DNA of 64,000 nucleotides from Escherichia coli (lineage in GTDB: Bacteria > Pseudomonadota > Gammaproteobacteria > Enterobacterales > Enterobacteriaceae): NCBI RefSeq assembly GCF_048403405.1, contig NZ_CP183129.1; one strand, given 5' to 3'. The translations under genes were made by a program, and so were the position numbers. Shown in pieces: positions 3,049-17,509 of the stretch. The notes beneath the pieces are model-generated. The model saw only the letters and a list, made by a program, of their open reading frames with translations. It searched no databases and was not told the origin of the DNA. How positions within the stretch are numbered: the stretch's first letter is position 1; each line of letters begins with the position of its first letter.

Positions 3049-6000
3049 TTATTTCCGTACCCGATGTCGGTGCAGCCACATCAGCTTATACGCCGCCGGG
3101 ATAATAAACAGCGATAGCAAAGGCGCGGTGATCATGCCGCCAATCATCGGCGCGGCAATCCGGCTCATCACCTCTGAACCTGCTCCCGTTCCCCACAGAA
3201 TCGGCAGCAGACCGGCGATAATCACTGCCACCGTCATCGCTTTCGGGCGCACGCGCAGGACCGCGCCGTGATACAACGCCTCATCCAGCTTCTGCTCGCT
3301 GAATGTTTGCGGATTATTCAACGACGGCTCGACCTCTATGGCGTGACGTAAATACATCAGCATCACCACGCCAAATTCGGCGGCGACTCCGGCGAGGGCA
3401 ATAAAACCGGTGCCCGTCGCCACGGAAAGATGAAAGCCCATCCACCACAGCAACCAGATGCCGCCCACCAGCGCAAACGGTACGCTGCTGATAATCAGCA
3501 ACGCTTCGCCCACCCGACGGAACGCCAGATACAACAGCACGAAGATGATCATCAGCGTCATCGGCACCATGAGTTTCAGCTTATGGTTGGCGCGCTCCAG
3601 TAGCTCGAACTGCCCGGAGAATGTCACGCTGGTGCCCGGTTTTAACTGCACTTTTTCAGCTATCGCTTTTTGCAAATCGTGAACCACCGACACCATGTCA
3701 CGATCGCGGGCATCGATATAAATCCAGCTCGTCGGGCGCGCATTCTCGGTTTTCAGCATCGACGGTCCGGTAGAGACTTTAACGTCGGCCACGTCTGCCA
3801 GGGTGATTTGCTGCTTCATCGGCGTCAGGATCGGCAACTGGCGCAGTGCCTGCGGACTATTGCGCCAGCTTTGCGGATAACGCAGATTAATTGGATAACG
3901 GGCAATCCCTTCCACCGTTTCGCCAACCATCGCCCCGCCCACCGCAGAAGTCACAAACAACTGCACATCCGCCACCGTCATACCGTAACGTGCGGCTTTT
4001 TCACGGTTAATCTCAACGTTGATATAGCGCCCACCTTCCAGACGCTCGGCAAGCGCAGAAGCCACGCCTGGCACCGTTCGTGCCACCTCTTCAATTTGCT
4101 CCGCCATCGCGTCGATATCCGCCAGCACAGTGCCGGAAACTTTAATGCCGATGGGGCTCTTAATGCCGGTTGAGAGCATATCGATACGGTTACGAATTGG
4201 CGGCACCCACAGATTCGCCAGCCCCGGCAGACGCACGGTGTTATCCAGTTCCTCAATGATTTTGTCCATCGTCATGCCTGGCCGCCACTGATCTTGTGGC
4301 TTAAGCTGGATGGTCGTTTCTACCATCTCCAGCGGAGCAGAATCGGTGGCGGTTTCCGCTTTCCCGGTTTTGCCAAATACCCGCGCCACTTCAGGTACGC
4401 TCATAATCAGCTTGTCGGTTTTTTGCAGCATACTCGCCGCCTCTGCTGCGGAAATCCCCGGCAGCGTCGATGGCATATACAACAAGTCGCCTTCATTGAT
4501 CTGCGGTAAAAATTCCCCGCCAACTTTATTGAGCGGCCAGAGAACCGTCAGCACCGAAAGCGCTGCCACCAGCAGCGTGGTTTTTGGCCAGTGCAGTACT
4601 TTCAGCAACAGCGGATGATAAGCACGAATCAAAAAGCGATTGAGCGGGTTACTGCTTTCTGGCGGAATTTTGCCACGGATCCAGTAACCCATCAGGATAG
4701 GGATCACTACGATCGCCAGCAGCGCCGCACCCGCCATCGCATACGTTTTGGTGAACGCCAGCGGGCCAAACAGACGCCCTTCCTGCCCTTCCAGGGTGAA
4801 GATCGGGATAAACGACAACGTGATAATCAGCAGACTGATAAACAGCGCCGGCCCCACTTCAACAGATGCATCGGTGATCACCTGCCAGCGCGTTTTATTA
4901 TCCAGCGTGGCGTCAGGATGCTGGTGCTGCCACTCTTCCAGTCGTTTATGCGCATTCTCGATCATGACGATAGCGGCATCGACCATCGCCCCGACGGCAA
5001 TCGCAATGCCGCCCAGCGACATAATATTGGCATTCAGCCCCTGGAAGTGCATGACAATAAAAGCAATACACAACCCCAGCGGCAACGAAATAATCGCCAC
5101 CAGCGCCGAGCGCACATGCCAGAGAAACAGCGCACAGACTACCGCCACCACAATAAACTCTTCCAGCAACTTGCCGCTGAGGTTGTCGATGGCGCGGTCA
5201 ATGAGCTGGCTGCGATCGTATGTTGTAACTATCTCCACGCCTTCCGGCAGACTGCTTTTCAGCGTTTCCAGTTTGTCTTTCACGGCGGCGATCACTTCTC
5301 GGGCGTTTTTGCCGGAGCGCAGGATCACCACCCCGCCCGCCACTTCGCCTTCGCCGTTCAGTTCGGCAATGCCCCGGCGCATCTCCGGGCCAATCTGGAC
5401 CTTCGCAACATCGCGCAGATAAACGGGCACGCCATTTTCACTGGCTTTTAAAACGATGTGATTAAAGTCGTCGAGCGTTTGCAGATAGCCGCTGGCGCGC
5501 ACCATATATTCCGCTTCCGCCAGTTCGATCGACGAACCGCCCGCTTCCTGGTTTGAAGCATCCAGCGCGCTTTTTACTTCGGCGAGACTGATGCCATATT
5601 GCGCCAGGCGCTGGGGATCGATAACCACCTGATACTCTTTCACCACACCGCCCACCGACGCCACTTCCGCAACGTCAGGGATGGTTTTTAGCTCATATTT
5701 GAGAAACCAGTCCTGCAATGAGCGTAAATCGGCCAGATCGTGCTTACCGCTGCGATCCACCAGTGCATATTCATAGATCCAGCCAACACCCGTGGCATCT
5801 GGCCCCAGCTCAGCGCTGACTCCCGCAGGCAGCTTACCCTGTACCTGGTTGAGGTACTCCAGCACCCGCGAGCGCGCCCAGTATGGATCGGTGCCATCTT
5901 CGAAAATGACATACACATAAGAGTCGCCAAACTGCGAGAAACCGCGCACAGTCTTCGCGCCAGGCACCGACAACATAGTGGTGGTTAGCGGATAAGTCAC

Positions 6001-6192
6001 CTGATTTTCAACGATTTGCGGTGCCTGACCGGGATAGCTGGTTTTAATAATCACCTGCACATCAGAGAGATCCGGCAGTGCATCCACTGGCGTGTTAATG
6101 ATGGTCCAGGTGCCCCAGATACTCAGAAACAACGCGCCCATCAGCACCAGAAAACGGTTCGCCACCGAGCGACGAATAATCCATTCAATCAT
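3049..6192 (-). CDS. cusA: RND copper/silver efflux pump, inner membrane transporter CusA
   Basis: 1047-aa ORF, RND transporter; synteny cusCFBA. Confidence 0.95.
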
Positions 6193-6203
6193 TGGTTATT
6201 CCC

Positions 6204-7427
6204 TCAATGCGCATGGGTAGCACTTTCAGAGCGCATCCGCTCCAGTGCGCCAGAAATATTGGCTTCGGAATCAATCAGGAACAGGCCGCTGGAAACCACC
6301 TTTTCACCTTCCGCCAGACCAGAGCGTAATGCGGTGACGCCTTGCGATGCCTGGAAAACGGCAACGCGTTTCGGTACAAAGCGCCCGTCGGCATCAACGG
6401 TAATCACCCGCTGTTCGCTGCCGGTATCAATCAGCGCTTGTGACGGAATGAGCAGCATCGGTTCGCTGGCGGTGTTGAGTTGCAACCAGGCGTTCATTCC
6501 CGGCTTTAGCGCCTCGTCGGTGTTGTCGACTTCCAGGCGCAGCTGCAGCGTGCGGGTTGCGGCATCCACGCCGGGTAGCAGCGTCCATTTGCGGATGGTG
6601 AGTGTTTTATCAGGTCGTGCCGGAACGGTGAGCGTAAACTGCGAGGCATCTTTCACCAGCCAGGCGATGGACTCCGGGATCGCGGCAGTGATCCACACCG
6701 GATCCATACCCTGAATTTTCGCGACCACGTTATCTTTGGCGATATTCATTCCCGCGCGCAGATCAAACGCGGTGATCACGCCATCAATGGGCGCTTTGAG
6801 CGTAAAGCGAGTCTGGATTTTTTGCGTGGCGATCAGGCGGCGAATATCCGCCTCCGGCATTCCCGCCAGTCTCAGCCGCTCAAGAATGCCTTCAGTCTGG
6901 GTCGCCGTACCGCCAGTTTCGCGCAGCAGTAAATACTCACTCTGCGCTTCCACCCAGTCGGGAATGGTCAGGTCGAGAAGCGGCGCGCCCTTTTGTACTT
7001 TATCGCCCACGGTAAGCGGATACACCTTGTCGATAAACCCGGCGGCGCGGGCCTGCACAATGGCATACTGATACTCGTTGTAACTGACATTCGCCGGGAA
7101 ACTTTGGGCAAAAGTCAGCGGCCCGCGCGTGACGGTCGCCGTTTTCACCCCCAGATTCTGCGTCTGAGTCGGGTCAATGCGCACACCAGACGCAGAACTC
7201 TCTTCATCGGCATATTTCGGCACCAGATCCATATCCATAAACGGCGATTTACCTGGTTTATCGAACCGCGTATTGGGATACATCGGGTCGTACCAGAATA
7301 AGATTTTACGTTCTGCGGTCGACGTTTTTTCTGCGGGCGGTTCCGCCTTTGCAAACCAGGTAAAACCTGCCGCAGAAATAATACCGCCCGCGATCATGCT
7401 GCCGATAATAAGCGCGATTTTTTTCAT
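6204..7427 (-). CDS. cusB: Copper/silver efflux membrane fusion protein CusB
   Basis: 407-aa ORF with signal/TM N-terminus; position between cusF and cusA. Confidence 0.95.
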   Translation of the reverse strand: MKKIALIIGSMIAGGIISAAGFTWFAKAEPPAEKTSTAERKILFWYDPMYPNTRFDKPGKSPFMDMDLVPKYADEESSASGVRIDPTQTQNLGVKTATVTRGPLTFAQSFPANVSYNEYQYAIVQARAAGFIDKVYPLTVGDKVQKGAPLLDLTIPDWVEAQSEYLLLRETGGTATQTEGILERLRLAGMPEADIRRLIATQKIQTRFTLKAPIDGVITAFDLRAGMNIAKDNVVAKIQGMDPVWITAAIPESIAWLVKDASQFTLTVPARPDKTLTIRKWTLLPGVDAATRTLQLRLEVDNTDEALKPGMNAWLQLNTASEPMLLIPSQALIDTGSEQRVITVDADGRFVPKRVAVFQASQGVTALRSGLAEGEKVVSSGLFLIDSEANISGALERMRSESATHAH

Positions 7428-7442
7428 CTCATTAAACCTGGG

Positions 7443-7775
7443 TTACTGGCTGACTTTAATATCCTGTAATAAAGAAAGGTTGCCCTGCTGGACAAAATTA
7501 AACGCCACTTTGTCGCCGGTTTTTATTTCGCCCATCTTCGTCTGCGGGGTGATGGTAAAGCGCATGGTCATCTCCGGCCAGTTCACGGCAGCAATCGGAT
7601 CGTGATGGATAGTGATTTTTTTGCTTTCCAGATCAATACCTTTTACCACCCCTGTGGCACTAATGACCTGCGGTTGTGCTTCGCTCATGGTTTCATGATG
7701 ATGTTCGTTAGCCTGGGCATTAAAGCCAATAACGGTAAACAGACTGAACATTGCGACTTGCAGTGCTTTTTTCAT
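7443..7775 (-). CDS. cusF: Periplasmic copper/silver chaperone CusF
   Basis: 110-aa ORF, signal peptide MKKALQVAMFSLFTVIGFNAQA. Confidence 0.95.
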   Translation of the reverse strand: MKKALQVAMFSLFTVIGFNAQANEHHHETMSEAQPQVISATGVVKGIDLESKKITIHHDPIAAVNWPEMTMRFTITPQTKMGEIKTGDKVAFNFVQQGNLSLLQDIKVSQ

Positions 7776-7798
7776 TTATTCTCTCCTGGAGTTAAAAA

Positions 7799-9175
7799 TT
7801 ATTGCTGCCAACCGCCACCAAGTGCGGTATATAAAGAAATTTCGTTAACCTGACGGGCATAATTCAGGTCAAGTAAAGTTTGTCGGGTTGCAAATAAAGA
7901 ACGTTCGGCATCCAGCACTTCCAGATAACTGACTGCGCCGTGCTGATATAATGCCCGCGCCCGTTGCAAAGTAATTTGCAGCGATGCCAGATAACGCTGC
8001 TGGGCGCTAATTTGATCGTTCAGGCTTTGACGTAATGCCAGCGCATCTGCCACTTCTTTAAAGGCATTCTGGATTTTCTGTTCATAATTCACCACCGACT
8101 GCTGCTGGCGAATTTCGGCGATATCCAGATTGGCCTGGTTGCGTCCGGCATTAAAAATGGGGATCTCAATTTTGGGAATAAAATTCCACATCCCGCTGCT
8201 GGCGTTAAATAAGGACGACAGATCGCTGCTGGCGGTCGATATTCCGCTGGTCAGACTGATAGACGGGAAAAATGCCGCGCGTGCAGCGCCAATATTGGCA
8301 TTAGCCGCCATCAACGCGTGTTCAGCTTCCATAATATCCGGGCGCTGCAATAAGATTTGCGACGACAAGCCCGCCGGTAATTTAACGCTTTGCAGGCTGT
8401 CGCTGTTTACTGTTTGCGCTTGCGGCAGCTTGCCGTAGCTTCCCAGCAACAGTTGCAATGCATTATTCGCCTGCGCCAGTTCCCCCTGACGTTTAGCGAT
8501 GTCGCTGCGGGTACTTTCTATCACCCCGCGAGCCTGTTCCAGCGCCAGAACATTGCTGCTACCGGTCAACAGTTGTTTTTCGACAAACGCATATGACTGC
8601 TGATAATTACGCAGCGTTTCTTCGGCTATTTGCAATTGCGCATACGCCAGTTGCTGATTGAAATAGCTTTGCGCGACATTAGAAACCAGCAGAATATGCA
8701 CCGCGCGCTGGGCTTCCTCAGTGGCTAAATAATTTTGGCGCTCGGCTTCGCTCATGTTCTTTAAGCGACCGAAAAAATCGAGATCAAAGCTGGCGTTAAG
8801 GCCGGTCGAAAACTCCCGTGTCGTGGCGGTATTCCCTTTAAGATTACCGCTCCAGCTGCCGCTGCCCTCGCCATTGAGCTGTGGGTAGCGGTCGGCATCG
8901 GTCAGACGATATTGCGCCCGTGCCTCCTGCACTTTCAGCGTCGCCATGCGCAAATCCCGGTTATTCACCAGCGCCTCGCTAATCAGCGTCTTCACCTGAT
9001 TATCAATAAAAAAGGTGCGCCAGCCCGCGTTCTGGTAGTTATCTGCTGCGTTAACCAGGCCGTTCTGGCTGAGTGAGAACTGCTTCGGTACGGGCATTGC
9101 CGGACGCTGATAATCCGGTGCCAATGAACAACCGGTTAGCGCAAGGGCCACACAAAATGGCAGAAGTTTAGGCAC
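7799..9175 (-). CDS. cusC: Outer membrane factor CusC, 5' end and promoter replaced by IS26
   Basis: 458-aa ORF whose first codon (GTG, complement of 9173-9175) lies inside the IS26 terminal repeat; recalled native N-terminus MSPCKLLPFCV is here (V/M)PKLLPFCV. Confidence 0.85.
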   Translation of the reverse strand: MPKLLPFCVALALTGCSLAPDYQRPAMPVPKQFSLSQNGLVNAADNYQNAGWRTFFIDNQVKTLISEALVNNRDLRMATLKVQEARAQYRLTDADRYPQLNGEGSGSWSGNLKGNTATTREFSTGLNASFDLDFFGRLKNMSEAERQNYLATEEAQRAVHILLVSNVAQSYFNQQLAYAQLQIAEETLRNYQQSYAFVEKQLLTGSSNVLALEQARGVIESTRSDIAKRQGELAQANNALQLLLGSYGKLPQAQTVNSDSLQSVKLPAGLSSQILLQRPDIMEAEHALMAANANIGAARAAFFPSISLTSGISTASSDLSSLFNASSGMWNFIPKIEIPIFNAGRNQANLDIAEIRQQQSVVNYEQKIQNAFKEVADALALRQSLNDQISAQQRYLASLQITLQRARALYQHGAVSYLEVLDAERSLFATRQTLLDLNYARQVNEISLYTALGGGWQQ

Positions 9176-9990
9176 TGTTGCAAATAGTCGGTGGTGATAA
9201 ACTTATCATCCCCTTTTGCTGATGGAGCTGCACATGAACCCATTCAAAGGCCGGCATTTTCAGCGTGACATCATTCTGTGGGCCGTACGCTGGTACTGCA
9301 AATACGGCATCAGTTACCATGAGCTGCAGGAGATGCTGGCTGAACGCGGAGTGAATGTCGATCACTCCACGATTTACCGCTGGGTTCAGCGTTATGCGCC
9401 TGAAATGGAAAAACGGCTGCGCTGGTACTGGCGTAACCCTTCCGATCTTTGCCCGTGGCACATGGATGAAACCTACGTGAAGGTCAATGGCCGCTGGGCG
9501 TATCTGTACCGGGCCGTCGACAGCCGGGGCCGCACTGTCGATTTTTATCTCTCCTCCCGTCGTAACAGCAAAGCTGCATACCGGTTTCTGGGTAAAATCC
9601 TCAACAACGTGAAGAAGTGGCAGATCCCACGATTCATCAACACGGATAAAGCGCCCGCCTATGGTCGCGCGCTTGCTCTGCTCAAACGCGAAGGCCGGTG
9701 CCCGTCTGACGTTGAACACCGACAGATTAAGTACCGGAACAACGTGATTGAATGCGATCATGGCAAACTGAAACGGATAATCAACGCCACGCTGGGATTT
9801 AAATCCATGAAGACGGCTTACGCCACCATCAAAGGTATTGAGGTGATGCGTGCACTACGCAAAGGCCAGGCCTCAGCATTTTATTATGGTGATCCCCTGG
9901 GCGAAATGCGCCTGGTAAGCAGAGTTTTTGAAATGTAAGGCCTTTGAATAAGACAAAAGGCTGCCTCATCGCTAACTTTGCAACAGTGCC
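9171..9990 (+). mobile_element. IS26 (IS6 family), copy 1, 820 bp
   Basis: 14-bp terminal inverted repeats GGCACTGTTGCAAA at 9171-9184 and complement at 9977-9990; internal tnp26 ORF. Confidence 0.95.
9234..9938 (+). CDS. tnpA: IS26 transposase Tnp26 (R29H variant)
   Basis: 234-aa protein MNPFKGRHFQRDIILWAVRWYCKYGISY(H)ELQ... matches recalled Tnp26; codon 29 is CAT here and CGT in copy 2. Confidence 0.95.
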   Translation: MNPFKGRHFQRDIILWAVRWYCKYGISYHELQEMLAERGVNVDHSTIYRWVQRYAPEMEKRLRWYWRNPSDLCPWHMDETYVKVNGRWAYLYRAVDSRGRTVDFYLSSRRNSKAAYRFLGKILNNVKKWQIPRFINTDKAPAYGRALALLKREGRCPSDVEHRQIKYRNNVIECDHGKLKRIINATLGFKSMKTAYATIKGIEVMRALRKGQASAFYYGDPLGEMRLVSRVFEM

Positions 9991-10439
9991 AATTTTACGC
10001 CGTCGGCGGTACGCAGCCAGCGCGGGGATTTGAGTCCTTCCGTGAAATTCCAGACCAGCTCACACAGCAGCCCGGTCAGGGTTTGCTCCATTTTTGGTTC
10101 CGCCGGACGTTCCAGCAGAAGCTGGAGTAGTGCGAGGCAGTATTCGCACAAGGAATCAGGTTCGGAAATAAAGTGCTCTGGTGTGGCGGGAAGGGTATCC
10201 ACGGTCAGGCTTTCGGTAAGATGCGGTGGGATGGGGTCGTGTAGTGTGGGTTGCAGTAGCGCAAGAGCCGCGTGAAGCCGCCCGCAGAGCGCCAGTCGTA
10301 GCGCTGGATCGTCGGTTTCAATCAGGGTTTCGGCAAAGCGGGCGCAGTAGTCAGCAAGGACAGTGAAATCCGTGGTGGCATTGAAGGGGACGGTCAATAG
10401 ATCGAGTAAATCGCTGTCAGTGGTGAGGATTGTAGCCAT
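9972..10439 (-). CDS. Hypothetical protein, 3' end truncated by IS26 (last ~5 codons and stop supplied by IS26)
   Basis: 155-aa ORF with GGAGG 8 nt upstream of ATG; acidic, Leu-rich product; reading frame runs into the IS26 end at 9990. Confidence 0.5.
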   Translation of the reverse strand: MATILTTDSDLLDLLTVPFNATTDFTVLADYCARFAETLIETDDPALRLALCGRLHAALALLQPTLHDPIPPHLTESLTVDTLPATPEHFISEPDSLCEYCLALLQLLLERPAEPKMEQTLTGLLCELVWNFTEGLKSPRWLRTADGVKLALLQS

Positions 10440-10785
10440 AGGGCAACCTCCGATAAGTGGGTGTTCAAGCCACCACCGGAGAGGCTAATCTCGCGGGTGG
10501 TGGAACCGGGCAGGGTTAGCCTTACCAGCCTTATCGGACACTGGCGCGTCTTGCGACGCCCCCGCCCGGCCCACCATTGAGATGTAACCGTGCGAACAAC
10601 ACAAAAAAAGACGCTGGCGCGTCATGTGTCGCCGATAAGATTTCTTCAGGAGGCTAATCCCGACGCCTGATTTTGCAGGCGCGGGAGAAAGATACTGCGA
10701 TTGGTCATGAGTGGCAAGGGCTACATCATGTTTACCGACATCTCACGCAAAAATACCCTGATTATTAATAGCGAAAATCAGTTTC
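10440..10785 (-). other. GC-rich, repeat-rich non-coding region downstream of the RT gene; candidate structured ncRNA
   Basis: No ORF of 60 aa or more; hairpin ccaccacc/ggtggtgg (10481-10503); inverted pair ccgataag/cttatcgg (10451-10458, 10530-10537); direct repeats gaggctaatc (10490-10499 and 10651-10660) and ctggcgcgtc (10541-10550 and 10611-10620). Confidence 0.3.
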
Positions 10786-13700
10786 TTATTTTGGCGGTAG
10801 CTTTTTGCGGTTCTTTGCCAACTGGAATCCTTCAGGTAACGGTTTGAATTTATCGCCGCCTTTAGGCCAGCGTTTTGCCCTGCTCTGAAATGCCCTTAAC
10901 GAGTCGATATCCAGCGTTGCAGCGACCACAAAGTCATTATCACCGCCCTTCACACGAGCAATATCACGCATAAAGGGTTCTTTTGCCGGGGAACGTACGC
11001 GACTATCGCCGTATTTTCGGTTATTCACTAAAATAGTATAGGCATGAATATCCAGCGCTGCTGATTCAATCAACGATGCAAACGTATCTAGATCTTTATT
11101 CCAGCTCAATACCATTAATGCATCGAGTGCGCCCTGAAAACGGATCCTCGCTTTACTATTCTGGAGTTCAGAGCAAATCATAACGCCAAAATTGACGCCG
11201 TGATGAATATATACCGGCTTACGTTGTTTAACATTAAGTGTCGAATCCCAAGACTTACCATAAGTTGAAAATAATGCCTCATCTTCACCTACGGCGGGTT
11301 CCAGCTTGGGTTGCCATATTTTGACACTCGCTGGATAGCCGAGTCTGTTATCTGAAAGGACAAGTACGGCCTCACTCTTCAGTTGATTATCGTCTAAGTG
11401 GCGGTATTCTGTTCCCGCAATTAGACTGATACCCGCCGAACTCAAACGATCAGCAATACTGTTAACCCAGCGTAACGGGATTGAAAGCTCAGGGAATAAA
11501 ACATAATCAGGTTTAGGAGATAGTTTCAATGTTGCATTAACCAGTTCAGAAATCCGCTGGTACCTTGAACGGGACAAGTTAGATTTATTGCAGGCCATTT
11601 TAGCCCAGTCGTCCTCCTCTGTTTTAATGCTGGTTAGCGCAACGACAACTTTATGTTTCCTGTCTGTGCCAATATGAATGAATTTCTTAGGCCGAGCTTT
11701 TTTTGTCGCTTCATCTGAGTCCTGCTCCGATGCTAGCAACGTCGGTTTGATCCATACTCCGCGTAATGCTTGAGTATATTTTGCCCAAATGGTGGACGGT
11801 CTCTCATCTGGTTTTTTGTCGGATGTGGAGGGTAATCCAACACATTCGGGGGCCAGTTCTGATATTTCAGCGGGTGTTAAAGGACGTGTAGGGAAAATGT
11901 AAGGTAGGTAACTTTCGTTTTTACGATTTCCTTTAGCCACTTTTTCCAGTCGGGTATTCTTGGTTGATTTCAAAAATAGCTTAATAACGTCAATATCAAT
12001 AAGCGATGAGTCGCTCATTAATTTCAGTATTTTAACTTCTTTTTTACTATCACGCTGATTAACAAGTTTTTCTGCCGACTGACTCTTTACGATCTGTTTA
12101 TAAGGTTCCTTTGCTAAATCAGCTCGAGCTACCAATGGCGCTTTTAAATAAAAATCTGCTGAATCAAAGCGAAGATCCAGTAAATCCTTTAGATTCGTCA
12201 GACTTTGTGAAATATGATTAAAAAATGTATCCGCAAGGCACTCTTCTTTCTTTGAACGTTTATCAAGAAATAATCTGTCAGGACTGTAATATCGTGTCGC
12301 TGCATCAACAAATAGCCAGCTTAATGTGCCTTTTATACAGCGCCAAAGATCATTTACTGCTCGAGTTTTGCAACCATTTATATTCACTTCCTTACCTGAA
12401 GTAATCACCGATGCCAACAGGTTGATGGATTCGTAAGCTTTAAGTACAATTTTTTCCGCGTGCTGCCATTCATTCATACTGATAGCAAAGCCAAGCAGCC
12501 TTGGCAGATAACTAAAATGTGCAAATAGATTATCAGCCCTAAGAATATGGTTGTAGGCAAACTGATAAAACTCTTCCCGCTGTTCTTTCCATTCACTTGG
12601 AGGCAGATCTCGTGCCAGTGTTTCAACGTAGCGTAATTGCAGTGACCAGCCCAAACGACGAATGGTTAATCCATCCGCACGGCGCAGAGTATCGGCATTT
12701 TCACCTACACTACCGGCAGCGGAAAGGACTTTAGCTGCGGTGGAGTGTTCCAGTTGATCCGGTGAAGGCATCAAGCGGTGTTCACTAGAAAGCTCGTAGA
12801 TCTCCTTTTCGATACTGTCGAGCAGGTCTATTCCAGCCCTCCCTTGAAGCACGAAAAGTTTTTGCTTATCGGATTGTAACTGGATGGTGGTCTTACCCTG
12901 GAAATGCTCGCCCTGCTGTATTTGCCATATTTGTTTTTGCTCGTTTTTCAAATAAACGCAATCATTGCCAAGCCTATCTTGCAGCAATAACATAAATTCG
13001 TGATTATTAGTAATTGTCCCTGTATCGCGTATTACAAGGAACATATCATCGACATAACGACCGTAGTGAATTGGTGATAGTTTTTCAATGACTAATTTAT
13101 CCCAATGGTGTAGCAATATATTTGAAATGATCCGACTGGCTGTTAATCCAATGACCAGACCACCATTAATAACAGGTGTTTTGTACGCTATTTTCTTTCC
13201 AAATGCCGCTGCGCCGTCAGACCAGTGCTTTAAGAATACTGCTAACTGTGCAGTAAACGCTTTTTCATCCTCAGTCAGTTTTATGTTTAGTGTGTTATAG
13301 AGATCATCAGAGGTTATAGCCAGTGGATCAATAAAATGATAGTAACTTTTTAAATCCAGTGAGGCGGCGATAATGTCACGATCTTTTTCCAACTCGTCAC
13401 GTATAGCTTTTAAGCCATCACCACGCCATTTTTGGTAGGGCTGGAAGTAGGGGCTAAAAGAACCCACGGCACTGATATGGAATGGATTATCCTGCTCATT
13501 GCTAAATAATTCATCATTACGAATACGCTTTAGCCGCGCGCCATAGCAACAGTTATCTAAGCTGGCATCAAATTTATGCCCGACCATGTTAATCCATAGT
13601 GCAGAGATAATGTGACTATCAACCGGGAAGTCACCAATAATACGAAACTCTGGTATCAGATCAAAATTATTAAATAAATGGTCGGCTGCTCGTTTAGGAT

Positions 13701-13995
13701 TAGAAAAGTGGACGTGTCCATTTTGGGATTCATGTTTTTTCTTTGTGGTTAATTTTTTCGGTAACAAACGAAATTTGCCAATCAACTTCTTATTGCTACT
13801 GAATCCATCTTCGCTCTGCAAAAGATCTAAGAGTTTTTGCAGGTTTTCAAGTAATTCCTGCTCATACTCGGCAAATTTGATAGCAACAGGAAATGTATTC
13901 TCAAAGAAGCTATCGGCTTTTGCTTTCCGGTAAGCGACCAGAAGGTCTTCAATCGTCAGATCATCCCAGCCAGTGAAAATTGCCTGATATGTCAT
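10786..13995 (-). CDS. Defence-associated reverse transcriptase fused to C-terminal nitrilase (CN-hydrolase) domain, DRT type 1-like (UG1-like)
   Basis: 1069-aa ORF with AAGGA RBS; RT motifs LDLKSYYHFID, GGLVIGLTASRIISNILL, YVDD (complement of 13045-13056); nitrilase triad context FPELS, VKIWQPK, GVMICSEL (Cys codon complement of 11173-11175). Confidence 0.75.
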   Translation of the reverse strand: MTYQAIFTGWDDLTIEDLLVAYRKAKADSFFENTFPVAIKFAEYEQELLENLQKLLDLLQSEDGFSSNKKLIGKFRLLPKKLTTKKKHESQNGHVHFSNPKRAADHLFNNFDLIPEFRIIGDFPVDSHIISALWINMVGHKFDASLDNCCYGARLKRIRNDELFSNEQDNPFHISAVGSFSPYFQPYQKWRGDGLKAIRDELEKDRDIIAASLDLKSYYHFIDPLAITSDDLYNTLNIKLTEDEKAFTAQLAVFLKHWSDGAAAFGKKIAYKTPVINGGLVIGLTASRIISNILLHHWDKLVIEKLSPIHYGRYVDDMFLVIRDTGTITNNHEFMLLLQDRLGNDCVYLKNEQKQIWQIQQGEHFQGKTTIQLQSDKQKLFVLQGRAGIDLLDSIEKEIYELSSEHRLMPSPDQLEHSTAAKVLSAAGSVGENADTLRRADGLTIRRLGWSLQLRYVETLARDLPPSEWKEQREEFYQFAYNHILRADNLFAHFSYLPRLLGFAISMNEWQHAEKIVLKAYESINLLASVITSGKEVNINGCKTRAVNDLWRCIKGTLSWLFVDAATRYYSPDRLFLDKRSKKEECLADTFFNHISQSLTNLKDLLDLRFDSADFYLKAPLVARADLAKEPYKQIVKSQSAEKLVNQRDSKKEVKILKLMSDSSLIDIDVIKLFLKSTKNTRLEKVAKGNRKNESYLPYIFPTRPLTPAEISELAPECVGLPSTSDKKPDERPSTIWAKYTQALRGVWIKPTLLASEQDSDEATKKARPKKFIHIGTDRKHKVVVALTSIKTEEDDWAKMACNKSNLSRSRYQRISELVNATLKLSPKPDYVLFPELSIPLRWVNSIADRLSSAGISLIAGTEYRHLDDNQLKSEAVLVLSDNRLGYPASVKIWQPKLEPAVGEDEALFSTYGKSWDSTLNVKQRKPVYIHHGVNFGVMICSELQNSKARIRFQGALDALMVLSWNKDLDTFASLIESAALDIHAYTILVNNRKYGDSRVRSPAKEPFMRDIARVKGGDNDFVVAATLDIDSLRAFQSRAKRWPKGGDKFKPLPEGFQLAKNRKKLPPK

Positions 13996-14289
13996 GCGTT
14001 ATCGTCCTTAGATTACAGTCTGTACAGAATTAGCCAGCCGTTTCATGCCCGAAGGGGGGCTCTTGACACCAGTAATCCATCAGTGAGGCTGGCAATAATT
14101 TTGATTTGTATCCATGTTACACGCTCCCCGCAACCAGTCCGAGCATATATTTGTCACATTTTTCCCGAAAGTGATTAAGTTTGAATTTTTTGTTTAATGT
14201 CGATTTTTAGTCGACAAAATGAGGAATAAGTAAACTATTTCTTGCTGTGGCGTATCCCTGAATCTACACTGGTTTAAATATTTGTACTA
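13996..14289. promoter_or_regulatory. Divergent promoter region between RT gene and abiEi, with palindrome gtcgatttttagtcgac (14200-14216)
   Basis: AT-rich 294-bp spacer between divergently oriented genes; inverted repeat is a candidate AbiEi operator. Confidence 0.35.
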
Positions 14290-15093
14290 ATGTCTATTCA
14301 GAGGCGACAGTTGCCAAACTATCTAAACTGGCTGATGCAGCACACGCTACCCGGCCAGGTGCTGCTCCAGTCATGGCTTACCCGCAACGGCATAGATCGT
14401 AAGCTCTCTTATCTCTATGTGAAGAATGGCTGGCTCAGGCGGATCGCTCACGGCGTATACTGCCGGACGGGCCGTGAGCCGGATTGGGTAGACGCGGTTT
14501 ACTGCCTTCAAACACAGTGGGAAAAGCCTGTTCGGGTGGCGGGGCTAACCAGCCTTGCGCTTCAGGGCCATGCGCACTATACCGAACCGGGTAAGCCGCA
14601 GGTCTGGCTCGCGCTTCCGGCTTACGTTAAGCTGCCGGGATGGTTTGCTGCCTTCGAACAATCTGCAACATTTATCACGCTGTATACATCGGGGCTTACC
14701 GTAGATGTAACGTCATTGACTACGGAACTGAAAATTGGCGACCGCCAGTTAGCAGGCAGTGCCCCGGAACTGGCCGCGTATGAGATCGCCTGCGGCGTTC
14801 CTTCGTTGATATCGTTCGAACATGCCGATGCTCTGTTTCAGGGGATGAATCTTCTCAGCCCACGCAAATTGCAGGCACTGCTTCGCGCCAGCCATTCGGT
14901 TAAAACCAACCGGGTGATGCTTTACCTTGCCCGGCGTAATGGACACCCTTATTTTCAGTATATTGATCAAAGCGGTATAGAAACAGGTACGGGAAAGCGG
15001 CAAATCATACCCGGCGGCTGGCTGGAGCCGGATTATCAAATTACTGTTCCACGCGCATTTAAACCGGAAGGAGTCGAAGATGGATCTGCGTGA
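14290..15093 (+). CDS. abiEi: AbiEi-family antitoxin/transcriptional regulator (type IV TA / abortive infection)
   Basis: 267-aa ORF, N-terminal motif ...GWLRRIAHGVY typical of AbiEi; overlaps downstream AbiEii gene by 14 nt. Confidence 0.7.
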   Translation: MSIQRRQLPNYLNWLMQHTLPGQVLLQSWLTRNGIDRKLSYLYVKNGWLRRIAHGVYCRTGREPDWVDAVYCLQTQWEKPVRVAGLTSLALQGHAHYTEPGKPQVWLALPAYVKLPGWFAAFEQSATFITLYTSGLTVDVTSLTTELKIGDRQLAGSAPELAAYEIACGVPSLISFEHADALFQGMNLLSPRKLQALLRASHSVKTNRVMLYLARRNGHPYFQYIDQSGIETGTGKRQIIPGGWLEPDYQITVPRAFKPEGVEDGSA

Positions 15094-16000
15094 TAGCTAT
15101 GCCCGGCAGGTCAAACTGTTGATGGCCGCTCTGCCGTATGTGGCGAAGGAGTCCTGTTTCGCGTTGAAAGGCGGCACCGCAATCAATTTGTTTGTGCAGG
15201 ATTTTCCCCGTCTGTCGGTGGATATTGATCTGGCGTACAAGAGCTTTGCGGATCGCGATACTGATTTGGCGGCTATCAACGACGCTTTGAAGAGGATTAC
15301 TGCATCGCTGAACGGCAGACCGGGGATCACCGCGATTCGGCAGGAAAATAAAGCGGATGAAAAGCGCATCATTGTGAATACCGCTGATGCAAAGATTAAG
15401 ATCGAGGTTAGCCCGGTCTGGCGCGGGCTGTTGTTGCCTCCGGCAGAAATGCCTGTGTGCGAACGTGTGGAAATGGAGTATGGCTTCACCACCATGAGTG
15501 TCGTCTCGCTGGCGGATCTTTATGGCGGTAAAATCTGCGCTGCGCTTGATCGTCAGCACCCGCGCGATCTGTTTGATGTGCTGAATATGCTGGAGAAACC
15601 GGGACTGATGCGGGAGATCTTTGACGGTTTTCTTTGTTATCTGGCAGGCCATCCCCGCCCCATCGCCGAGTTGCTGGCTCCAAACTGGGATACAGAGCGG
15701 ATCGCCACGTTGTACGCGCAGGAATTTTCGGGGATGACTCAGCAGGAAACGTCGCTGGAATCGCTGCTGTCAGTAACGACTTTGCTGCCGCAGGCGTTGA
15801 AGTCACATCTTACGGATCTGGATCGCGAGTTCTTGCTCAGTTTTAAGCAAAACAGCCCTGACTGGTCGCGGTATCGCTATCCTGAAATTCAGCATCTTCC
15901 GGCTATTCGCTGGAAGCAACGTAATCTGGCGGTGCTGAAAGATAAAAATCCGGCGAAGTATGTGGCGGCGGTGAATAAGCTAGAGAGGGTGCTGGCGTAA
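15080..16000 (+). CDS. abiEii: AbiEii/AbiGii-family nucleotidyltransferase toxin
   Basis: 306-aa ORF with SD GGAAGGA; motif ALKGGTAINLF...RLSVDIDLAY characteristic of AbiEii (DUF1814). Confidence 0.75.
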   Translation: MDLRDSYARQVKLLMAALPYVAKESCFALKGGTAINLFVQDFPRLSVDIDLAYKSFADRDTDLAAINDALKRITASLNGRPGITAIRQENKADEKRIIVNTADAKIKIEVSPVWRGLLLPPAEMPVCERVEMEYGFTTMSVVSLADLYGGKICAALDRQHPRDLFDVLNMLEKPGLMREIFDGFLCYLAGHPRPIAELLAPNWDTERIATLYAQEFSGMTQQETSLESLLSVTTLLPQALKSHLTDLDREFLLSFKQNSPDWSRYRYPEIQHLPAIRWKQRNLAVLKDKNPAKYVAAVNKLERVLA

Positions 16001-16364
16001 TCAATAGACCAGCATTAATCACGGATGATTACCAATCAGACAGATATGGTTAAATCATCGAATTCATAATTAATACTTTTTCTTACGCCGCTGAACAGCT
16101 TGAAAAGGATACATATTTTAAATATCAGTGAAGTGGACAGTTTATTGCCGTTATTAATAGAGATGGAGGAATAAATACGCGTATTCTACTATTGCAACAA
16201 AAACAACGATGATGATCAGTTTTCATAATGAAGTAACCTGACAGATATAAAAATGTTGATTGAGGCTCAATGCCCGGATGAAGGTTGTCGAGGGAGCCAG
16301 GTGGTTTTTTCTTTTGGGTGATCTCCATTGCTGGATAGTCCCCTCTTTCTCGCTCAAAGCAGAC

Positions 16365-16689
16365 TGTACTGCACCCATTTTGTTGGACGATGAAATGGAA
16401 TAGCCCCTAATATGTCAAAGCCAAAATACCCTTTTGAAAAGCGCCTTGAAGTCGTGAATCACTACTTCACAACTGATGATGGTTACAGGATCATCTCGGC
16501 ACGTTTTGGTGTCCCCCGAACCCAGGTCAGGACATGGGTTGCCCTCTATGAAAAACATGGAGAAAAAGGTTTAATTCCCAAACCTAAAGGCGTTAGTGCT
16601 GATCCAGAGTTGCGTATTAAGGTCGTGAAAGCTGTGATCGAGCAGCACATGTCCCTTAATCAGGCTGCTGCTCACTTTATGCTTGCTGG
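16365..16689 (+). mobile_element. IS150 (IS3 family) left-end fragment, truncated by IS26
   Basis: Begins TGTACTGCACCCATTTTGTTGGACG; encodes the N-terminal ~90 aa of InsJ/OrfA (MSKPKYPFEKRLEVVNHYFTTDDGYRIISARFGVP...) ending at the IS26 boundary. Confidence 0.8.
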
Positions 16690-17509
16690 GGCACTGTTGC
16701 AAATAGTCGGTGGTGATAAACTTATCATCCCCTTTTGCTGATGGAGCTGCACATGAACCCATTCAAAGGCCGGCATTTTCAGCGTGACATCATTCTGTGG
16801 GCCGTACGCTGGTACTGCAAATACGGCATCAGTTACCGTGAGCTGCAGGAGATGCTGGCTGAACGCGGAGTGAATGTCGATCACTCCACGATTTACCGCT
16901 GGGTTCAGCGTTATGCGCCTGAAATGGAAAAACGGCTGCGCTGGTACTGGCGTAACCCTTCCGATCTTTGCCCGTGGCACATGGATGAAACCTACGTGAA
17001 GGTCAATGGCCGCTGGGCGTATCTGTACCGGGCCGTCGACAGCCGGGGCCGCACTGTCGATTTTTATCTCTCCTCCCGTCGTAACAGCAAAGCTGCATAC
17101 CGGTTTCTGGGTAAAATCCTCAACAACGTGAAGAAGTGGCAGATCCCACGATTCATCAACACGGATAAAGCGCCCGCCTATGGTCGCGCGCTTGCTCTGC
17201 TCAAACGCGAAGGCCGGTGCCCGTCTGACGTTGAACACCGACAGATTAAGTACCGGAACAACGTGATTGAATGCGATCATGGCAAACTGAAACGGATAAT
17301 CAACGCCACGCTGGGATTTAAATCCATGAAGACGGCTTACGCCACCATCAAAGGTATTGAGGTGATGCGTGCACTACGCAAAGGCCAGGCCTCAGCATTT
17401 TATTATGGTGATCCCCTGGGCGAAATGCGCCTGGTAAGCAGAGTTTTTGAAATGTAAGGCCTTTGAATAAGACAAAAGGCTGCCTCATCGCTAACTTTGC
17501 AACAGTGCC
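16690..17509 (+). mobile_element. IS26, copy 2, 820 bp, same orientation as copy 1
   Basis: Terminal repeats GGCACTGTTGCAAA at 16690-16703 and complement at 17496-17509. Confidence 0.95.
16753..17457 (+). CDS. tnpA: IS26 transposase Tnp26
   Basis: 234-aa protein matching recalled Tnp26 (R29). Confidence 0.95.
   Translation: MNPFKGRHFQRDIILWAVRWYCKYGISYRELQEMLAERGVNVDHSTIYRWVQRYAPEMEKRLRWYWRNPSDLCPWHMDETYVKVNGRWAYLYRAVDSRGRTVDFYLSSRRNSKAAYRFLGKILNNVKKWQIPRFINTDKAPAYGRALALLKREGRCPSDVEHRQIKYRNNVIECDHGKLKRIINATLGFKSMKTAYATIKGIEVMRALRKGQASAFYYGDPLGEMRLVSRVFEM

Follow-up and report, generated by a model that had tools for sequence, protein, structure and literature searches.

The noncoding gap downstream of a UG5-large reverse transcriptase (RT)-nitrilase gene of Escherichia coli very probably consists of an antisense immunity cassette of the P4/P1 type, which belongs to the backbone of an island and would act by the mechanism proposed below (positions 10440-10718, 279 nt, minus strand), and of the unstructured tail of the 3.4-kb cargo cassette that carries the RT gene (positions 10719-10785). 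All positions refer to the window, i.e., the whole 64,000-nt stretch of E. coli DNA that was analyzed (assembly GCF_048403405.1, contig NZ_CP183129.1). The cassette is a member of a well-known family with a box specificity of its own, and the result leaves the known working of this RNA family unchanged.

Elements of the immunity cassette

The gap is delimited by the stop codon of the RT gene and the start codon of a 155-amino-acid (aa) open reading frame (ORF). An Rfam scan covering window positions 9000-15500 produced three minus-strand matches inside it. The features of the gap and its two neighbors are as follows.

10719..14086, minus strand: swappable cargo cassette holding the UG5-large RT-nitrilase gene
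10786..13995, minus strand: RT-nitrilase gene, 1069 aa (PADLOC RT_UG5-nitrilase, 1034 bits, full length)
10440-10785: gap between the RT-gene stop codon and the 155-aa ORF start codon, both ORFs on the minus strand
10719..10785, minus strand: 3' tail of the RT cassette, 67 nt, AT-rich (fold z = -0.88)
10717..10689, minus strand: sigma-70-like promoter from the promoter scan (-35 TTGCCA at 10717..10712, 17-nt spacer, -10 TATCTT at 10694..10689)
10604..10682, minus strand: leader RNA, 79 nt (Rfam RF01394 isrK, 68.8 bits, threshold 50), homologue of P4 SeqA and Salmonella IsrK
10660..10650, minus strand: target box b1, GGAUUAGCCUC, in the leader
10639..10632, minus strand: target box a1, CUUAUCGG, in the leader
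Stem 10623..10610 and U-run 10609..10603, minus strand: intrinsic terminator from the terminator scan (GACGC/GCGUC stem, then U7)
10493..10581, minus strand: CI/C4 antisense immunity RNA (Rfam RF01695 C4, 71.1 bits, threshold 45)
10538..10530, minus strand: CI box a2, UCCGAUAAG, in the second hairpin loop
10522..10516, minus strand: CI box b2, AGGCUAA, in the single-stranded joiner
10470..10503, minus strand: hairpin downstream of CI, presenting the second b target box AGAUUAGCCUC (10491..10481), the b part of a seqC-like target
10457..10449 (part 10446..10457), minus strand: second a target box, CUUAUCGGA, overlapping the Shine-Dalgarno sequence GGAGG (10451..10447) by 3 nt
9972..10439 (homologous part 9991..10439), minus strand: 155-aa ORF, a backbone gene and the first one under the cassette

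The minus-strand RNA 10700..10430 (271 nt) folds with a z-score of -5.1, and none of 200 shuffled sequences folded as well. Two of the Rfam matches exceed their curated thresholds. The C4 match spans the full model (positions 1 to 87) without noncanonical pairs, and the CI segment (fold z = -5.05) adopts a fold in which a 17-bp closing stem encloses two hairpins; the leader has a fold z-score of -2.63. The third match, to the c4-a1b1 model of the C4 target motif (RF03163, 10695..10643), reached 43.8 bits, just under its threshold of 46.7, and this counts against the preferred reading. In the RT-adjacent stretch 10719..10785, by comparison, folding against shuffled sequences and the terminator scan revealed neither a significant fold nor a consensus terminator. 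The isrK match begins at 10682, near which transcription from the predicted promoter would start. The promoter hexamers CTTGCC and TAT..T align across five sequences including P4, and the aligned P4 hexamers upstream of the leader are what we take to be PLE; neither PLE nor the CI RNA is annotated in the P4 record.

The two boxes of the CI RNA are complementary to two sets of targets, one in the leader and one further downstream. Specifically, a2 pairs with CUUAUCGG in the leader and with CUUAUCGGA in front of the 155-aa ORF, the latter over 9 nt with 100% complementarity, while b2 (AGGCUAA) pairs with UUAGCCU both in the leader hairpin loop and in the 10470-10503 hairpin; the perfect complementary runs between the CI boxes and the two target sets of the window are 8, 9, 7, and 7 nt long. 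The downstream a box lies at the Shine-Dalgarno sequence that serves the 155-aa ORF (AUG at 10439..10437). A model score above threshold, a covarying closing stem with two hairpins, and two boxes with upstream and downstream targets are the testable hallmarks of the C4 family, all of which were found here; for the isrK/SeqA leader, these are a model score above threshold and a Rho-independent terminator, both likewise present.

The first-pass annotation, made from the sequence alone, had described the gap as GC-rich, free of ORFs of at least 60 aa, and packed with short repeats that might form a structured noncoding RNA. All the repeats it listed are present, with offsets of up to ~10 nt from the positions given there: the hairpin CCACCACCGGAGAG/CTCGCGGGTGGTGG occupies 10470-10483/10490-10503 (previously 10481-10503); CCGATAAG occurs at 10450-10457 and 10632-10639, both copies being complementary to CTTATCGG at 10530-10537; the direct repeat GAGGCTAATC lies at 10481 and 10650 (previously 10490 and 10651); and the direct repeat GAC(A/G)CTGGCGCGTC lies at 10537 and 10610. 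These repeats are the specificity boxes of the cassette, in which the CI boxes a2 and b2 are complementary to both target sets. The longest ORFs in the gap measure 48 and 46 aa, in agreement with the earlier statement, and the Rfam matches and fold z-scores confirm that a structured noncoding RNA is encoded. The description as GC-rich holds for 10440-10718 (57.7% GC, with 68.5% in the CI RNA) and fails for the RT-adjacent 67 nt (37.3%, compared to 41.8% in the RT gene); the gap as a whole has 53.8% versus 51.2% in the window. The fallback offered in the same place, a terminator plus promoter region, was partly right, as the gap holds both a promoter and an intrinsic terminator.

Co-variation of boxes and targets in homologous cassettes

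Homologues were collected first with a pattern scan of IMG/VR and then with an nhmmer profile search. The IMG/VR sample was chosen by the leader motif and comprised at least 120 loci; among the matches listed there were 65 unique full cassettes, including those of the window, P4, and E. coli and Serratia loci. In these 65 cassettes, the cognate runs had medians of 8, 9, 7, and 7 nt (a upstream, a downstream, b upstream, and b downstream, respectively), and noncognate box/target pairs had medians of 3 to 4 nt (longest Watson-Crick run). The downstream b box co-varied with b2 in 63 of the 65 cassettes and the downstream a box with a2 in 57 of them. The helices of the CI RNA are also supported by compensatory change: among 57 distinct homologues including the window, 97.6% of the cells pair, compared to 34 to 48% in slid controls, and 18 of the 27 pairs have changed on both sides. 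Fold z-scores, two Rfam matches over their thresholds, and boxes that co-vary in 65 cassettes exceed what chance would produce.

Across the 65 cassettes the a and b specificity boxes assort combinatorially. The matches listed contain 42 kinds of a boxes and 18 kinds of b boxes in 54 combinations, and the combination of the window was found only once, i.e., it is unique in this sample. In one IMG/VR cassette (L082) the upstream and downstream targets are mismatched, as if it were recombinant.

Comparison with P4, P1/P7, and Gifsy-1

The immunity region of P4 (NC_001609; PLE - seqA leader - CI RNA/seqB - seqC) gave the same three Rfam matches in the same order and on the same strand, with 74.9 bits for C4. 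In an alignment of the window, P4, the Serratia locus, and two other E. coli loci, the promoter hexamers, the two leader hairpins, the terminator, the CI RNA, the downstream hairpin/target, and the start of the next ORF all correspond between the window and P4, and in both the CI boxes have complementary targets on either side, one upstream and one downstream. The boxes themselves read CCGAUAAG/AGGCUAA in the window but CCUGUGAA/UUCUCAC in P4, and the specificity is therefore different. P4 also has ~85 extra nt between the terminator and CI. Downstream, the window carries the 155-aa bundle protein, followed in intact relatives by HTH_35 and integrase genes, in place of the epsilon, orf151, cnr, and alpha genes of P4, and upstream a defence cargo slot takes the place of vis/PLL/sid.

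Although the cassette is of the P4 type, the element is not a P4-like satellite with the core psu, delta, sid, alpA, int, and alpha, as none of the genes alpha, sid, delta, and psu was seen in its vicinity. The neighbors of the cassette are the 155-aa ORF, the RT, AbiEi/AbiEii, and IS26, and in E. coli 042 nothing but remnants of the integrase and HTH genes is present. The 155-aa protein was also compared with P4 ORF151 and is unrelated to it; this and the departure of the island from a canonical P4 satellite are points against the preferred reading.

With the C4 system of P1/P7 (immI: a1/b1 - c4 - a2/b2 - icd - ant), the cassette shares Rfam family RF01695 and its clan, the c4-a1b1 motif, and a downstream target that overlaps the ribosome-binding site of the next ORF. 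It differs in that the regulated genes are not icd/ant and in that it resides on a small tRNA-associated island fragment rather than on a plasmid prophage. The Gifsy-1 arrangement IsrK - STnc1160/orf45 - anrP is similar in having a leader above the isrK threshold followed by a C4-like RNA and an ORF of ~45 aa; there, however, the downstream gene encodes an antirepressor and the leader activates in trans (PMC4825925), whereas the window has the unrelated 155-aa protein. Lambdoid phage relatives show 73 to 75% DNA identity.

The downstream gene and its IS26 context

The 155-aa family is widespread in Enterobacterales. In the window, homology to E. coli genomes stops at position 9991, and IS26 replaces the last few codons of the ORF, near the end of which an IS26 inverted repeat is located (9977-9990). 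The protein is predicted to be soluble and helical, and its AlphaFold2 model (pLDDT 84.9) suggests a generic helical bundle with a short C-terminal β-hairpin. A Foldseek search of this model against the PDB returned nothing at an E value of ≤1e-3, and the ORF had no match in NCBIfam, PADLOC, PHROGs, or Pfam.

Two directly oriented copies of IS26 (9171-9990 and 16690-17509) with exact 14-bp inverted repeats bracket positions 9991-16689, where the cut 155-aa ORF, the immunity cassette, the UG5 RT gene, and AbiEi/AbiEii are found together with an IS150-like piece. The whole resembles a translocatable segment, bounded by IS26, that was moved out of its thrW island context. The junction of this segment with IS26 occurs in no complete E. 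coli genome of the collection, and a search of the plasmid collection revealed only two records that carry most of the segment. On the other side of the first IS26 lies a cusCFBA-like copper/silver efflux operon (3049-9175, minus strand), the cusC-like gene of which (7799..9175, 899 bits to PRK09837) has its start codon inside the IS26 inverted repeat; the region upstream of the operon, and probably the true N terminus of CusC, has therefore been cut off.

Proposed mechanism and alternative readings

In P4, the CI RNA is processed by RNase P and PNPase, and P1 C4 reportedly pairs at the ribosome-binding site, as a result of which icd translation is blocked. The P4 CI RNA arises by processing of the leader transcript, and its pairing with seqA and seqC causes premature transcription termination; IsrK and SeqA RNA are structural homologues, and in Gifsy-1 an RNA of ~80 nt is processed from the read-through transcript (PMC4825925). 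By homology to these systems, transcription, processing, and regulatory outcome of the cassette in the window may be envisaged as follows. The promoter, at the position of P4 PLE, would start transcription, and most transcripts would end at the terminator (10623..10603), giving a leader of ~79 nt that displays b1 and a1. Transcripts reading through would hold the CI/C4 RNA (10581..10493), which is presumably excised as a stable RNA of ~85 to 90 nt; the layout, with a single promoter upstream of the leader, CI, and the second target, all on the same strand, appears consistent with processing from a shared transcript. The a2 and b2 boxes would then pair with the leader boxes as well as with the downstream set, and as in P4 and P1 this pairing would lead to a translation block and premature termination. 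The downstream operon would thus be kept silent and sequence-specific immunity conferred. From the overlap of the downstream a box with the Shine-Dalgarno sequence we infer repression of the 155-aa ORF and, in intact relatives, of the genes for the HTH_35 regulator and the integrase.

This cassette may have little left to regulate, which tells against the repression model: the downstream operon has decayed, being cut by IS26 in the window and reduced to HTH and integrase pseudogenes in E. coli 042. The same decay would fit an intact-looking relic of a degraded island that serves at most as a terminator for the RT mRNA and a promoter for a gene fragment, a reading that we regard as unlikely. 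In its favor, no good terminator follows the RT before that of the leader is reached, and the copies with the RT share ≥99% identity in ~257 genomes, so that their conservation is uninformative with respect to selection. On the other hand, all elements are intact, including Rfam scores well over threshold, four perfect runs of 7 to 9 nt, the promoter, and the terminator; the 155-aa ORF has been kept open across Enterobacterales; and a trans-acting immunity RNA could also target incoming relatives without a local operon.

The homologous cassette of Gifsy-1 provides a different objection, as leader activation, not repression, has experimental support there (PMC4825925). Under such a scheme, the short terminated leader would act in trans on the read-through transcript, open its structure, and switch on translation of a 46-aa ORF and the downstream gene. 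The leader does fit the isrK model with 68.8 bits, a 46-aa ORF with an ATG start (10625..10485) covers the CI region at the position of Gifsy-1 orf45, and the experimental model stems from the homologous Salmonella isrK-orf45-anrP cassette (PMC4825925). In the window, however, the 46-aa ORF stops 46 nt before the start codon of the 155-aa ORF, and since the two do not overlap, there is no direct passage of ribosomes between them; furthermore, the CI boxes co-vary with both target sets, and such three-way co-variation is predicted by an antisense repressor and superfluous for activation. Activation of this kind appears quite improbable for the window, with the qualification that the repression and activation models can coexist and are not mutually exclusive.

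The cassette belongs to the island backbone and not to the RT

Relatives of the RNA region were found in 2811 of 5426 complete E. coli genomes. The backbone, comprising the 155-aa gene and the cassette, is present in 807 of the 5426 genomes, ~259 of which carry the RT, this count being the class at ≥95% identity, all inspected members of which have the RT. In ~590 E. coli genomes a type I restriction-modification (R-M) system takes the place of the RT on the same backbone. At the thrW tRNA-Thr locus of Ecol_656 and ZH063 the order is AbiEii-AbiEi, hsdR-hsdM-hsdS, cassette, 156-aa ORF, and integrase remnant; E. coli 042 and the window have the RT where these strains have hsdRMS, the hsdRMS cassette being 6.1 kb long with the same flanks. 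Pairwise BLAST placed the breakpoints of the swap at 14086/14087 and 10718/10719, the latter directly upstream of the -35 hexamer and in agreement with a jump in GC content at this boundary. Homology to the R-M allele ends at 10718, and within the gap, positions 10719..10785 alone move together with the RT; this tail is shared at 85% with the RT contig of E. albertii (L020). The cassette belongs to the island backbone, not to the RT.

An AbiEi/AbiEii toxin-antitoxin pair (14290-16000, plus strand), divergent from the RT, lies beside the slot in the RT and R-M alleles and in Serratia. At the cargo borders (window positions 14087 and 10718), the AbiE side ends in TTGCCAGCC and the immunity side begins with CTTGCC(A/G), in the RT and R-M alleles alike (R-M allele: L162, positions 1910 and 8001). 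As for a remnant recombination site, which the first-pass annotation had also considered, no att-like structure was found in support, and the TTGCC repeat at both cargo borders is its sole trace; this short repeat could represent microhomology for cassette exchange or a coincidence.

Because the RT cassette has no terminator of its own, the RT mRNA may end at the leader terminator. RT transcripts would then cross the promoter at 10717..10689 and acquire the a1/b1 boxes at their 3' end, with occasional read-through enlarging the pool of CI RNA, and a defence gene would be coupled to an immunity switch. We give this idea little credence. If it were true, the RT mRNA could be a decoy for the CI RNA, or the CI RNA could affect the RT mRNA at its 3' end and in its stability, and the same would apply to any cargo in the slot, e.g., hsdS in the R-M allele.

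That the UG5 RT-nitrilase uses the RNA of the gap as its template, primer, or scaffold, in the manner of retrons, DRT2, or DRT9, was the central suggestion of the first-pass annotation and is now very improbable. The suggestion drew on the location of the RNA directly 3' of the RT, on the same strand and without a consensus terminator in between, and RT and cassette also adjoin in Serratia marcescens and probably in E. albertii, where the RT contig ends 71 nt past the RT stop codon. The scan of RT homologues, with one genome per species, comprised 35 loci at 48 to 95% identity. C4 and isrK were found beside the RT homologue in only 1 of the 26 loci scanned with Rfam, that of S. marcescens, and BLASTN over all 35 loci as well as an nhmmer profile search gave the same answer; absence of the region beside homologous RT genes was the outcome that the first-pass annotation had itself named as speaking against a partner RNA. 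The next closest RT (80% identical) adjoins a type VI secretion gene and is among the 25 without a cassette. The adjacency in Serratia was inherited rather than acquired independently, because the locus is of the same island type, with an AbiE flank that is 85% identical and a 153-aa ORF and an HTH_35 gene downstream. Conversely, the cassette follows a type I R-M system in the ~590 genomes mentioned above and also occurs without the RT in >2800 E. coli genomes, as well as in P4 and lambdoid phages, and the cargo boundary leaves the RNAs outside the RT cassette. Neither conservation beside the RT nor residence on the same mobile unit, the features by which an RT-associated noncoding RNA may be recognized, was found. 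The only likeness to retron msr-msd and to the DRT2 and DRT9 noncoding RNAs is that a structured RNA adjoins an RT gene; in contrast to these, the RNAs of the gap, a P4-type leader and CI/C4, are not conserved with the RT, lie outside the RT cargo on the backbone, and belong to an unrelated RNA family. No noncoding block is conserved on either side of the RT homologues beyond close relatives, and the gap contains no small transmembrane partner ORF comparable to that of the published "RT-nitrilase + 1TM" system. UG5, a member of the class 3 UG/Abi RTs, has no known noncoding RNA (PMC9226505; bioRxiv 10.64898/2025.12.16.694600). For UG5-large of S. meliloti, RNA-seq showed no flanking transcript, and deletion of the upstream region left defence unaffected, i.e., this RT defends without a detectable noncoding RNA (bioRxiv 10.64898/2025.12.16.694600).

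The "ash family protein" annotation

RefSeq places an "ash family protein" over positions 10485-10658 (minus strand), a PGAP annotation with a weak match to Pfam Phage_ASH (PF10554; E = 1.2e-4), but a protein-coding gap is hardly credible, as Phage_ASH fits residues 22 to 85 of the old P4 "cI ORF," itself the translation of the CI RNA and seqC region, the nucleotides vary in the pattern of an RNA, with compensatory changes in pairs and co-variation of the boxes, and the window and its closest relatives differ by a 1-nt indel inside the ORF. The Phage_ASH domain also turns up in members of the 155-aa family whose gene calls are over-extended. P4 epsilon, the helper derepression protein to which some papers give the name "Ash," is assigned to another Pfam family (PF25738).

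Implications

The RefSeq name "ash family protein" and the family PF10554 denote a conceptual translation of the CI RNA/seqC region (in P4, L002:8168-8584). For the RT, a false lead is eliminated: the neighboring structured RNA is neither the template nor the scaffold of this UG5 RT-nitrilase, which fits the view of the class 3 UG/Abi RTs as free of noncoding RNAs. For the island, the analysis describes a cargo slot immediately upstream of the immunity promoter, in which a UG5 RT alternates with a type I R-M system between identical flanks.
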